NCBI GenBank assembly: GCA_951406725.2
Contig: OX597824.1
Location: 97,030,001 to 97,094,000, forward strand
DNA length: 64,000 bases
Source of the DNA: Octopus vulgaris
Taxonomy: Eukaryota
Reading direction: 5' to 3'
Shown: one piece after another, positions 16,547 through 58,450 of the stretch
Numbering within the stretch: position 1 is the first letter of the stretch
Layout: the number at the start of each line of letters is the position of its first letter
Position numbers and translations under genes: made by a program
The notes under the pieces: model-generated
Told to the model about the DNA's origin: nothing
What the model saw: the letters and a program-made list of their open reading frames with translations, nothing else
Database searches by the model: none

Positions 16547-18160
16547 TTTATTCTTTTATATGTCTCAGCCTTGAGACTGCGGCCATGCTGGGGCACCATT
16601 AGTGTAATCACCTTTTAATAGGTCAATTCTATGGGTTTGGCTTTTGGTAAAGGAGGGTGTTCGATACTGTTGCCCTCTTTTGAGTTTCCTGTCTTCATAT
16701 TGGTTCATGTCGGATCTTGGATAGTAAGAGGTCAAGTTGTTTCTTGAAAACAACTCCTCCCACTCCATGGATATCTCTCAGATGTTTGGCAAGGAGTTAA
16801 ATAGCCGTGGGCCCTTGAATCCCAAGCCGTTGCAGTACATGGTCTTCGCTTTAGATGACACAGCTGGGACTTTTGGAAAAGTGAAGCGACATCTATTTTG
16901 AGGTCTGGTTTAGCACTCAATTCCAAAGTTTGATGCCAGCTCCTCCAGTATCTTCCATACATATATCACTGCATATCTCTCCCGTCTTCGCTCCAGGGAG
17001 TAGAGTCGTGGCTCTTTCAGTCTCTCCCAGTTGCTCAGCTGTTCCATTGATGCAACCTTCCTCATGTAATATCATTGAACCGCCTCAAGTTCTACTATTA
17101 AATCCTACAGTGTAAGATGACCACAGTTGAGAGCAGTAGTCTAGACGGCTAGGGACAAATGTCCTCCACAGGACCGGCATAGTTTCCTGGTCCCTTGTTC
17201 TGAATCCATCCGACCATTCGCCTGCATGCTGCCACCATCTTGGTGACATGCATGTGAAACAAGGCATCCTTGCTCATATCAAGATCACGCACCGTATGTG
17301 ATTCTAGGATTTCCGCTCTTTATGGTCCGAAGTATCGTTGTTGTGACTACTGAGCACCAATTAGCTGGGAGCGGAGGGCTGGGAATTTGCCTGCATTAAA
17401 TTGCATGTTGTTGTCCTAAGCTCATTTATATAAGGTATCTTGGTCTTTCTGTAGAAGATTAGCATCAGAAGGTTCCTTGACTGTTTGTACTACTTTCGTG
17501 TCGTCAGCATAGCTAGTAAGTGTGGATGTCTGTGTAACTGGTGGTATGTCTGAAAGAGCGACCATGAACAGTAGTGGCCCCAGTACAGATCACTGATGCA
17601 CTCCACTTTCTATTAATGTCTCCACAGAGAGGGCTCTGTTGGCTGCTACAGCTTGGCTTCTGTCTCTTAAGAAGTCATGCAACCACTCTCCAATTTCCCC
17701 TGAGTATCTGTAGTTTGTGACATATCACTCCATCATCCCACGATCAAACTTATCAAAGGCCTTTGTAAAGTCAAAATGTATCCCATCTACATTTGAACGA
17801 TTCATTAATTCCTTCAACACCCAGTCATAGAGTTGCAAAAGCTGTGTAAGGCAGCTTCTGCCTGAGCGGAAGTCATGCTGGGTGTCCGGAAGCAAGTCAT
17901 TATCTTTAAGGAACGCAATTAGTTTCTTTCTGACAATCTGCTCCATGACTTTGCTGACATGGGAAGTTAGAGAGACAGGTCTATAATTCTTAGCGTCTGC
18001 TCTGCTAACTACCTTATGGATGGGGCATATTATGCCTTTAACTTTTTGGGAAGTCTCCTTATTGTGTGGAAGCTCTAGAAGAGAATCGAAAGTCGTCTAG
18101 CTAGAGTTCCTTTGCATTTCTATGGGAGGATTCCTGGGAATCCATCAGGGCCTGTTGCTA
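16547..18160 (-). pseudogene. 5'-truncated CR1-group LINE ORF2 (reverse transcriptase) with 3' tail
   Basis: GPDG, NYRPVSLTSHVSKVMEQIV, QHDFRSGRSCLTQLL, DFTKAFDK, VLGPLLF, YADDTK (YADD at 17500-17511), SRLDYCSQLWS; stops and frameshifts present. Confidence 0.93.
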
Positions 18161-19650: not shown

Positions 19651-19695
19651 TCCCCAAATGTTAGGTGTCTTTAGTAGAAAGAATTATTATTATTA

Positions 19696-19772
<77 letters not shown>

Positions 19773-20268
19773 GAGTGAGAGAGCTGTGTATGCCATCAAA
19801 GTGACACTGGGGTAAAATATACGAAGCCCAGTATACCCATCATGACTACCCGTCTCATAAGGTACACCCGGCACATGCATCACAACCATATGTGTGCGAC
19901 ATGGTGACCTCATATCAAGATAAACAGCGCATGACCTTGTAGGTGGGGCCCAGTTAGAATTTTCTTCTGGTCGAGTAACCCATCCTGCTCAAATGGTCCC
20001 TGAATAAGGGCTGTTTAAGGATGTTAAACGAAACACCCATGTTTCCAGAGGTGAATTATTCAAACCCCCAAAAATCCCTCTCAACATATGTGCATCTCTG
20101 ATCACGAGCAGAAGTAGTGGGGGAGCATCATAGCTCCCCCACTACTTCTGCTCGTGATCAGAGATGCACATATCGTCAGTCACTAAGGGACATGCTCAAC
20201 TGGTTAAGGTCAAGCAACTGACAAGCAAATCTGTGGTACTGAGCAGAATATTTGCTGTGGCCCATCTT
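19773..20268 (-). mobile_element. (AAT)n-embedded element, copy 2, with perfect 41-bp hairpin at 20086-20173
   Basis: Reverse complement of 5466-5962 with the same two end points. Confidence 0.9.
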
Positions 20269-20281
20269 ATTATTATTATTA

Positions 20282-20336
<55 letters not shown>

Positions 20337-22519: not shown

Positions 22520-23427
22520 TATGGTCATCCCATAACTAATGCGGTTTTTTCAATTGTATGGACTAGACTAAGAGTCAGATGGGGACGGGATAAGCTTCCT
22601 GCATCAACTTGCTACAAATGCGGGTAGTAATTTTATTTTGGTCTTATTCTTAGTGCAAGTTCTAAAGAGTGCTGTTCGATTTTATCGGTTATTTTTTCAA
22701 AGCTATAATGGAAGTGACTAAGGAGCATATTCGACATATTTTTCTTCATGAGTTCAATAAAGGCAACAGCGTAACGGAAACTGCAAGGAATATTAATGCA
22801 GTATATGAAGATCGGACAACATGTGTAAGCCAGTATCAGCGGTGGTTCCAGAAATTCCGAGCCGAAAACTACAGCCTAGAAGATGAGCCACGTCGTGGAA
22901 GATCTGTAGAGCTTGATGAGGACAGCTGGCAAACCCTGGTGAAACAAAATCCCATTGTAACTGTTGAGGAACTAGCAGAGAAGCTTGGATTTGGTTAGTC
23001 AACCATTCATTGTCACCTGTATGCTATCAGAAAAGTCAGCAAATTGGGTCAATGGGTTCCTCACAAACCTTCTGAGTCTAATCACATGCAGATAGTGAAT
23101 ATGTGCTCTTCTTTGCTGCCACATCTCATGAATGAACCTTTTTTTGTGACTGGTGATGAGAAATGGGTTCTCTATAAAAATGTCAAGTGCCGAAGACAGT
23201 GGGTAGGGAAAGGAGAAACACTGGCACCCCAGGCTAAAGAAGATCTTCACCCACATAAGGAGTTATTATCTGTTTGATGGGATATGAAAGGTTTAGTTGA
23301 CTTTGAACTTTTAAACCCAAACCAAATGATAACAAAGGAGATCTACTGGGAACAGCTTGAGTGGCTTAAGTCAGCTCCTGAAGCAAAATGACCATATTTG
23401 GTTTCAAGATGAAAGGTGTTCTTCCAT
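22520..23427 (+). pseudogene. Mariner element: probable 5' TIR from ~22522 and transposase pseudogene from ATG 22708, 3'-truncated
   Basis: HTH (ETARNINAVY..QRWFQKFR..LEDEPRRGR), WVPH, VTGDEKW and LLSV*WDMKG; one frame with in-frame stops; breaks off before the second catalytic Asp. Confidence 0.93.
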
Positions 23428-25754: not shown

Positions 25755-26349
25755 AGAGATAACTCTATCGATGTAGAGATATGAAGTGATTGGTGTGTCC
25801 TCGTAAAGTCTACTAAACGAACTGTGTTGGTAGTGACGTTGAAACAATGAGACGGATATGAGCTTTGAAGGAAATTTATTGAATTCATCGAAGATTCGAT
25901 CAGAAATGAAGAATTATGAAATAGGAGAGGGTGAGGCACCATTCGCAGCGCTTCTCTATCTCACTGGTTCACCCGGGCTTTCTTTCTACTCCATCTTCTC
26001 TTTTACAACATCGCCTTGTCTAACACCGCACTGCCCACATTCTCAACCGCCACAATACCTTTAATCATCACCCAACCACCCCAACCACCACAACTACCAC
26101 TCCATTTCCATCAACACCCCATAGCGCTCCCCACCACAATATCAACGCGATTATCGTCAAGTCATCTCCCCCACTGAACCACTGGCGCCATCATCATCGT
26201 CCCACCACATCCAACAAAACCACGCCACCGCCTCCAAAGAACTTCATCCTCCCCACATCTTCAGCACAGCTCTACTTCCATCACCATTACGACTACCACC
26301 AGCACGTCAATCACCATCACCGCAACCATCACAACCATTACCATCACTA

Positions 26350-26467
26350 CCATTGAAAAGGTTGCAAGACGCAGCGAAAATTTTAGAAAAATAAATAAAT
26401 GAGTGGAAACTTTACCGGTGAGTGTGTTAAATAATAAGGCACTAAAAGAGAATGACCCTCCCCAGAC

Positions 26468-26478
<11 letters not shown>
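26350..26478 (+). mobile_element. PLE-like remnant with hammerhead-like motif at 26350-26386
   Basis: UUGAAAA-G-GUUGC aagac GCAGC-GAAAAUU-U-UAG; ends at (TA)n. Confidence 0.6.
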
Positions 26479-26524
<46 letters not shown>

Positions 26525-27169: not shown

Positions 27170-27520
27170 TATTTGGAATATTTTCAACCCTAGCACTTAT
27201 TCCATCGTTCTCTTTTGCAGAAGCGTTAAGTTACGAGGATGTAAACACACCAGCATCGGTTCTGAAGCGGTGGTGGAGAATAAACACGGACACAAAGATA
27301 TCCCCACCACAAACATGCATATATGTGACCGCGTGTGTATCGTTGGCGATTTTCTTTCTCCGCCTTCCCTTCCCTGGATCTTTCCTTTTTCTATGTTTCT
27401 GACGAAGAGCTCCGCTCGAAACGTTAAATCCTCCTTCTTTCTTTCCTTTCCTGAACGTCCAATAACACTATACTGGTTCCACGCCCTCGCGTTGTGTTTT
27501 CTTATTGTTCATGTTTGGAG

Positions 27521-56329: not shown

Positions 56330-58450
56330 CAAGGGCTCCTTTCACTTCGTTCAGTCGCTGCAGGCACTGATAGGGGCCTCGATCATTCACACTCTTTTAA
56401 CTCTAGTCTTTCCTCAGACATTCTTGTTTTCACTATCAACTAATTAATTAACTTAAACTTTCAAATAAATTTTAAAATTCATTATAGGAATTCCACAGCA
56501 CATTCGCAACTCTAGCTTCTAAATTTGACTTGAATTATTCATTTCTGGAGACTAAATACTACAAATTGAGTAAAACATGGAATAATTTTGGACTTCATTT
56601 TTTTCTCTCCTTTTTCTTGTAAAGAAAATTTGAAATCATTTCCTTCGCAACGGAAACTCGTTGTATTTAAGGCAAAAGGTGTTAAACCTGTTCGCTTCCA
56701 AGTGTGAGAATCTAATCTGAAGTGGAAGAGATATCAAACATTCGCTATTCTTGTTCTTCAGTCTTAGGAAATCCGTTCTCTATATGGGAACAGGAGACTA
56801 GTACAAACAGCTTCAGTTTCTTGTTCAAGTAAAGTATTAAGTTCCTCATTCCAGCGAGCGGAACCCTCCAAATTCTGTTTCCTGCTTTTCTTAATATTCC
56901 CTCTACCAGATTACTTTTGACACAGGGAAGTCTGTTCTTCAAGGACATCACTTAACACACGAACAGCTACCTTGAGTATCCCGTTAGGTAACTTATTGTA
57001 ACAATAATTAACCATAGGATCATGTGATCAGTCCCTCACAGCTTTTTTTTTTATCATTGCCGTTAATACAAAATTTCTGGGTAGCCACTGCTCTTCATTG
57101 TGGAGCTTGAATGCAATAACACAATTTTCAGAAAGTCCATTAATTTCCTTAGACTCATAGACTCACGCCTTTTCTCTGTGGACCGAGAAAACCGTTCGCA
57201 CATTGTTCTTAATGTATCTGATTAGTCTAACTTCCTTCCAAGTATCAGAGATTCTCAAAACCGCTTGCGCAGCCGCACAGTGTTGCTGGACAAAATATTT
57301 AACTTTAAATTTAAGTTTTGCAGCGATCGCAGTAATTTTACTCAACATCCCTAAGAATCTATCAGAGGTAAACATAATTAGAAAATTACTATTTGTAAAT
57401 CTCACAACGAGAGATATTCAGCAAAAGTACTTCGGAGTAAGGATTGCTTGCCAACATAACATGGCAGTCCTGGTTGAGGACGAATGTTGCTGTAGTTTAG
57501 CCCCAGAAGACATCATCTCCAGCTGACTGTACGACACGATCTGTTTCCTTATATTTTCGAACAAGGGAATCTAGCACCCTAACATAATTTTTCAGGAGAC
57601 CAAGCCTTCTTTACTGAAAACTATTTAATATCAGTCACGATAGAAGATACATCACAAACATGCAACTGGATTATTCCACGAAAATGTTTTATACTCACTG
57701 CAATAATTACGTCTGAACTGGAAATAGAAAACAAGATATTTATCAACAGGTAATTTAGTGTTTTCATCAATTGTCAAGGTGTGAAAATTTGCAGATGCAG
57801 TTTGTTTAAACATGTATATTTCAACAACGAAGTTGCATCATTCTATAAATTCAAGCACATAATTATTGCCTCACCAGCTGTCAAAAACTTTCAACATCTT
57901 TTTACATACGGCCATTAAAATGCTGAACTGAAATTAAATAGTTATTTATCTGAAAGGCTAAAACGGGATTATAAATAACTTTAATCTGCTCTCAGTTTGA
58001 TTATTTTCGCTCTTGATCACTCGAAATCTCACGTAGCAAGTGCAGTACTCTGTTCACAAGCAATAGTTGTTTTCCAAGTTTATGGAAGTCTTGCTTCTAA
58101 GTGTCTTCAAATTTCTTTCCATTAGCAAAACTCCTAGCAATTATTGTATCACGACAATAAACACAACGCAAACCACTCCACATGTGACCATCAGACATAA
58201 ATATTTCATGCAGCTTTTGCGATTTTGAAGCGGTTTTTCGCTACTTCATCCCGCTGTTCATTTACTCAAGCAACTCAAAGTTCGTTTTTGCCTCCCTATC
58301 TTTAAATGTGGTATGGTTCATCAGTTCTTGACAAAGTTTGTTATCAGAATTATAAGACGAAATACTTTTGTAAATTTACAAATAGATGCAGTTTGCAAAC
58401 CAAATTTATGTGTACCAGAAATAATATAGAATGCTAGAAAAGATGATATA
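56330..58450 (-). pseudogene. Decayed hAT-family (ZNF862-like) transposase
   Basis: Collinear minus-strand motifs TLTIDENT..VDKYLVFY (~57790-57715), MFTSD..MLSK..IAAKL..QQHCAA..DTWKEV (57163-57405) and IAFKLHNEEQWLPRNF (~57120-57070), matching DESTD, TSDGA, HC.AH and RWLSR; boundaries approximate. Confidence 0.75.

Follow-up and report, generated by a model that had tools for sequence, protein, structure and literature searches.

The window analysed here, a stretch of 64,000 nucleotides from Octopus vulgaris, raises the question of whether a short motif at 26350–26386 is a hammerhead ribozyme with an altered core and, if so, what kind of element it belongs to. The sequence-only reading had described two such motifs, and the letters at both places (26350–26386, plus strand, and 10962–10928, minus strand) are as it gave them and occur well above shuffle expectation. 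The hammerhead topology that it proposed is likewise supported, both by a descriptor match and by the fit to the published consensus of the metazoan minimal hammerhead (min-HHR). We consider it highly probable that the repeat bearing this U3-A8 motif at its 5' end is the terminal repeat (pLTR), in truncated form, of a Penelope-like element (PLE), with a source that was once functional and with both copies in the window now inactive. The coordinates of the features are collected in the table.

Features of the two copies of the hammerhead-bearing repeat in the window
Feature	Position	Strand	Basis
Copy 1, minimal type I hammerhead motif with U3-A8 core	26350..26386	+	sequence read, descriptor scan and dimer fold
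Dispersed repeat, copy 1, an end-piece likely derived from a PLE pLTR and made up of the hammerhead motif, a linker rich in A and an AC-rich 3' end	26346..26473	+	
(AT)n microsatellite directly 3' of copy 1	26474..26521	.	sequence read
Copy 2, hammerhead motif with mismatched C3.A8 and with 2 nt deleted where stem II meets loop II	10928..10962	-	
Copy 2, 5' part of repeat	10876..10968	-	
353-bp insert interrupting copy 2, starting TC, ending CTAG, between A and T	10523..10875	-	
Copy 2, 3' end of repeat, running into (AT)n	10505..10521	-	
Inverted last 8 nt of element with 3' extension (tail), joined to the 5' end of copy 2, ending (AC)n	10969..11039	+	

In copy 1 the core heptamer UUGAAAA (26353–26359) places U3 at 26353 and A8 at 26358, and is followed by an extra G at 26360. 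Stem II is formed between GUUGC (26361–26365) and GCAGC (26371–26375), giving 5 bp with one U.G wobble that enclose a loop at 26366–26370. The GAA of the 3' box (26376–26378) leads into an AAUU palindrome (26379–26382), which would act as a loopless helix III, and then to U17 at 26383, with the predicted cut between 26383 and 26384. The strands of stem I are CCA on the 5' side (26350–26352) and UAG on the 3' side (26384–26386), so that the middle pair is a C.A mismatch, a point that the sequence-only reading had passed over. Copy 2 reads CUA, CUGAAAA, G, GUUG, a 5-nt loop, CAAC, GAA, AAUU, U and UAG from 10962 to 10928 on the minus strand; its stem I (CUA/UAG) is intact and the complementary 3-8 pair is absent (C3.A8).

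To gauge how often such a motif would be met by chance we used a minimal-hammerhead descriptor, consisting of the core heptamer, a stem II of at least 4 bp, GAAA, a palindromic helix III and UH. Within the window this matched twice with U3/A8 (at 26353, in copy 1, and at 58328), once with C3/A8 (copy 2), once with C3/G8 (27399) and never with U3/G8, while the respective expectations per window from 100 local Markov resamplings were 0.04, 0.06, 0.06 and 0.09; since the descriptor was composed after the motif had been seen, these rates flatter the motif. The match at 58328 is weak, has no stem I pair and was discarded. The stability of the monomer fold is unremarkable (z -1.10 and -0.31), and copy 1 on its own folds as the stem II hairpin alone. 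A search of Rfam with 26280–26470 gave no hammerhead family among its five matches at E <= 10. With the whole window the best 150 of 513 matches were all to microRNA families, and the six alignments listed were of microsatellites. Exact-pattern scans for the motif gave no match in viral contigs (0 in each of two scans) or in GTDB genomes (0); the one locus found in metagenomes lies in coding sequence that looks bacterial and was rejected as a coincidence.

The state of the wider family was examined in four public runs, three of contigs and one of RNA, aligned at 80% likeness to 26330–26479, 150 nt of copy 1. The contig runs gave 4610, 8231 and 8529 aligned records and the RNA run 653 of 12.9 million reads, numbers which for 150 nt imply that the repeat family is very abundant. 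The ratio of summed to single-contig depth is ~10,000–40,000, which is to be taken as an order of magnitude only and not as a copy number. In a sequencing-run search parts of the repeat occurred under six coded organism labels, and there was no RNA run among the matches listed.

Position 26374 is A in 215 of 217 RNA reads and in ~99% of the contig depth, so that stem II of the family is fully Watson-Crick over its 5 bp and the wobble of copy 1, where a change at 26374 turns a U-A pair into U.G, is private to that copy. Each contig run has two places with A>G at 3% or more, both fully explained by 26387 and 26395; none therefore falls at 26358, and A8 is not commonly G. Places with T>C number 1, 0 and 0 in the contig runs and the single one is at 26443 rather than at U3. 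At the 5' edge 110 RNA reads start their alignment at 26352, the mean RNA depth over 26352–26354 is ~170 compared with 193 in the next bin, and the contig depth drops towards the edge of the aligned region. The consensus of the loose ends 5' of 26352 ends in ACT in all four runs. This gives a majority of CUA followed by U3, from which it follows that both the CCA of copy 1, where the private change at 26351 breaks the middle pair of stem I, and the C3 of copy 2 are private. Since position 3 is just one base away from where the homology ends, a C there may be clipped rather than counted, and the frequency of C3 is possibly underestimated. Reconstructed from these alignments, the family majority is U3 and A8, a 3-bp stem I of CUA/UAG, a Watson-Crick stem II of 5 bp and the AAUU palindrome; the expectation that U3/A8 would be the modal state is thus borne out.

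No compensatory change in stem II was seen among the 40 of 86 differences listed, though copies deriving from a single source are not expected to covary. The changes listed near stem II are C>T or G>A at 26370, 26372 and 26376, and CpG sites account for two of these. The C>T at 26372, which would convert a G-C pair of stem II to G.U, was found in 56 of 216 RNA reads and at less than 1% of the depth in the three contig runs, and this excess in the RNA probably comes from a small number of strongly transcribed copies.

Homology between the two copies extends past the motif (in a within-window comparison, 86% identity over 94 columns at E 6e-26) and resumes beyond the 353-bp insert, where 26457–26473 matches 10521–10505. 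Both terminate at the identical base and then run into (AT)n, which in the case of copy 1 is likely to have been the insertion target. By this comparison each motif forms the start of the same dispersed repeat, which is 125 nt or longer. By the terminal rules (TC...CTAG with A/T flanks) the insert would be Helitron-like. A segment within it, 10737–10717 on the minus strand, matches 26369–26390 of copy 1 at 21 of 22 nt (within-window BLAST, E 0.004), including the private G at 26374; this may be chance or capture.

Loose ends are also found behind 26473, in 104 RNA reads and in 60, 144 and 119 contig records of the three runs. The sequence at 10977–11006 (plus strand) agrees in 29 of 30 letters with the consensus of those 104 reads as they continue past 26473, which means that copy 2 bears the last 8 nt of the element and a 3' extension of ~63 nt, inverted, at its 5' end. 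Inverted arms lie at 10499–10512 and 10969–10982. At the 5' edge of the repeat 11 of the 15 joints listed (of 33) switch strand at 26352–26357, and the family sequence upstream is heterogeneous, with an agreement between loose ends of 0.46–0.55. PLEs are described as leaving inverted 5'-truncated copies, often with the tail at one end only, and as using (TA)n targets (Craig et al, 2021, PMC8557442), and in the Poseidon element PAc the tail was traced to two internal starts of reverse transcription in an AC-rich stem-loop (Frangieh et al, 2024, PMC11167929). The inverted tail on copy 2, the strand-switch joints at 26352–26357 and the common 3' end running into (AT)n are all traits of this kind. 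It would seem likely from this anatomy that the repeat is a truncated pLTR of a PLE with the motif at its 5' end, and not a free-standing ribozyme.

Of 68 open reading frames within ~4 kb of the copies, 63 were scanned against Pfam after low-complexity filtering, five over a mariner remnant being left out, and none of the 63 had any Pfam match at E <= 0.001, a reverse transcriptase (RT) or GIY-YIG domain included. From an ATG at 26452 a frame would remain open through the tail (~28 codons; 26452–26473 joined to 10969–11039, plus strand). That this might be the start of a PLE ORF entering the tail was considered and is unsupported, as the protein searches gave no real homologue: the frame across the inverted tail had none at E <= 10 in one search (none of four candidates), and in another its three matches were all to repetitive proteins and judged spurious. 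With no PLE ORF found near the copies, it is the structure of the repeat that points to a PLE origin.

Given its stem I C.A mismatch, copy 1 is likely to be inactive. Copy 2, with its C3.A8 mismatch and 2-nt deletion, is decayed and likely dead. The sequence-only reading had called the C3.A8 copy probably dead, and for that copy the judgement stands, C3 being private and C.A a mismatch; it does not set the two apart, however, since copy 1 appears to have been lost as well.

As helix III is loopless, a monomer cannot form the hammerhead junction. In the published model two copies in a tandem transcript pair by their palindromes and cut one another (Cervera and De la Pena, 2014, PMC4209133). For the source of the octopus repeat we would envisage a tandem transcript in which two motifs pair through the AAUU palindromes to give a double hammerhead, U3-A8 retaining the 3-8 tertiary pair, and in which each half cuts its partner after U17 (26383). 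Cleavage would be slow and would probably need help from the protein of the element. Reverse transcription, primed at an AT-rich nick, may then begin within the element, either at the AC-rich site (26473) or at a point farther along the tail, and often halt just past the hammerhead, and such early stops would leave thousands of short copies, which decay. The nearest-neighbour energy of the double-hammerhead fold, in which tertiary contacts are ignored, is +3.8 kcal/mol for copy 1 and +2.4 kcal/mol for copy 2, while the best competing dimers are at -15.6 and -10.5 kcal/mol. For copy 1 the best dimer is an 8-bp A4U4 duplex that covers A13, A14, U17 and U1.1, and with them the cut site. In this model the positive energies and the competing dimers speak against efficient cutting. 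Across the predicted cut, too, the RNA depth stays level (221, 222 and 233 in successive bins), with both strands equally read, and no pile-up of RNA starts or ends at the cut was seen among those listed, which in a fragmented library is a weak test. The copies in the window, 15 kb apart on opposite strands, cannot share a transcript.

The repeat could be derived from a PLE and the motif nevertheless be vestigial, non-catalytic even in the source and serving as a protein-binding or RT-stop structure, or as nothing. This would sit well with the UUU triplet, the 3-bp AU-rich stem I, the lack of a visible loop I/II contact, the competing A4U4 duplex and the RNA reads that run across the predicted cut site. 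In published work, moreover, hammerhead mutants of PAc leave insertion in vitro unaffected and its RNA-seq is without cleaved ends (PMC11167929), and PLE min-HHRs cleave weakly even as dimers (PMC4209133). We nevertheless regard it as unlikely, because no core position is lost from the family majority, in which 3 and 8 remain complementary, and two changes that preserve the tertiary pair would be easier to explain had catalysis been under selection in the lineage of the source. The shuffle rate of 0.04 per window for the U3/A8 descriptor, the repair of both defects of copy 1 in the family majority, which is unexpected for a chance match, and the inverted tail and (AT)n ends as independent PLE-type traits make it highly improbable that the hammerhead likeness is a chance feature of an unrelated SINE, MITE or other repeat, even though there is no link to an ORF, no Rfam match and nothing unusual in the fold z-scores, the two copies represent one evolutionary event and so count once, and the 353-bp insert carries its 21/22 nt match to part of the motif.

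A unit of a non-autonomous hammerhead retrozyme, with tandem repeats and circular RNA, would account for the high copy number and the lack of a nearby ORF, and animal retrozymes are reported to derive from PLE pLTRs (bioRxiv 10.64898/2026.07.22.740005). However, within the 64 kb the copies are dispersed, solo and 15 kb apart on opposite strands rather than in tandem, the upstream sequence is heterogeneous (agreement 0.46–0.55), the strand switches at the joints along the 5' edge, and retrozyme hammerheads are described as canonical with a 6-bp helix I (PMC4209133); we therefore hold it very improbable that the repeat is a retrozyme unit rather than a truncated pLTR. It is also very doubtful that the family represents terminal repeats of a Naiad-type PLE with (TA)n as its target, with a U3-A8 ribozyme that escaped searches for CUGAnGA and an A4U4 palindrome that locks the default dimer off until the protein of the element refolds it. 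The Naiad clade is reported to be without canonical hammerheads. The short motifs searched for were absent from the portions covered of the Naiad supplement (PMC8557442) and of that of PMC13282606.

The window as a whole is rich in microsatellites and eukaryote-like, with many dispersed repeats. A second, unrelated minimal hammerhead lies at 27395–27429 (plus strand), with a canonical C3-G8, stems I and II of 4 bp each and an ACGU palindrome; its double-hammerhead fold is at -0.3 kcal/mol, (AT)n follows ~100 nt downstream, and it likely represents another PLE family. A mariner-type transposase remnant, split by a stop, is found at 22666–23277 (plus strand), where two frames were scanned against Pfam (HTH_48 E 2e-18, Transposase_1 E 7e-5). 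The reverse transcriptase fragment at 17725–18096 (minus strand; RVT_1 E 2e-8) is presumably LINE-like and has no link to the hammerhead repeat. An inverted pair, 5399–6051 and 19684–20335, of 653 bp and 97% identity represents a dispersed repeat of recent origin that contains a palindrome.

Returning to the likely truncated PLE pLTR, its motif had been put forward as an under-annotated ribozyme variant, and in this the sequence-only reading is not supported. Perreault et al (2011, PMC3088659) had described natural hammerheads with U3-A8, citing Przybilski and Hammann (2007) for covariants that were already active in vitro, and Cervera and De la Pena (2014, PMC4209133) gave it a descriptor of its own, with ~1,300 mostly solo matches in S. 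mansoni, and found it also in a Cercyon PLE. The expectation of the sequence-only reading that CUGAnGA descriptors miss the family proved correct, since the published standard descriptor requires ^cuganga (PMC4209133) and Rfam misses the motif too; as both pass over such families, counts of hammerheads in animal genomes are underestimated. In the literature searched on hammerheads in octopus and cephalopods, largely open access, there was no description of this family, and neither "ribozyme" nor "hammerhead" occurs in the main text of the O. vulgaris repeat paper (PMC13282606); existing repeat libraries could already contain the element. The octopus repeat likely adds an ordinary example to a published subtype, with both copies in the window dead remnants, and its significance as one more high-copy family in a described class is modest. 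If the source element were recovered, a U3-A8 core with a UUU site would offer a natural test of the need for protein in PLE hammerheads.

Comparison with known systems places the motif among the PLE min-HHRs. Positions 3 and 8 are complementary in copy 1 and in the family, stem II falls within 3–8 bp, stem I has at least 3 bp in the family and in copy 2, and G10.1-C11.1, a single extra base after position 9 and a loopless palindrome followed by UH are all present. On its sequence, then, the motif at family level agrees with PLE min-HHRs in each of these respects. It shares with the metazoan min-HHR, as described in PMC4209133, the extra base after position 9, G10.1-C11.1 and the palindromic 15.2-16.2, together with the lack of a loop III, the short stem I, the AU-rich 3' flank and the dispersed, mostly solo copies. 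The PLE-linked row S. mansoni(4) of Figure S3 in that paper shares with the octopus motif the heptamer UUGAAAA, a stem I of 3 bp and U17, and in the Crassostrea gigas row helix III is likewise AAUU-U; U3-A8 and an all-AU helix III, combined in the octopus motif, are not found together in the legible rows of the figure. It differs from the U3-A8 families given there (S. mansoni families 3 and 4 and the Cercyon PLE) in belonging to another sequence family and another host and in having G as the extra base after position 9, and from the PLE families in that the O. vulgaris repeat has no linked ORF among the frames scanned within ~4 kb of its copies. With the covariants in the relevant passage of Perreault et al (2011, PMC3088659) it has in common the replacement of C3-G8 by U3-A8, although that passage does not deal with the loopless dimer type to which the octopus motif would belong. 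The resemblance to PAc, the Poseidon PLE of Anolis carolinensis (PMC11167929), extends to a hammerhead near the junction of pLTR and ORF, AC-rich 3' end points, an optional tail, AT-rich targets and RNA-seq without cleaved ends. PAc, on the other hand, has C3-G8 and a known RT-EN ORF, its hammerhead cuts only with the protein of the element, and its tail is described as 30–40 bp, compared with the segment of ~63 nt seen in the octopus.
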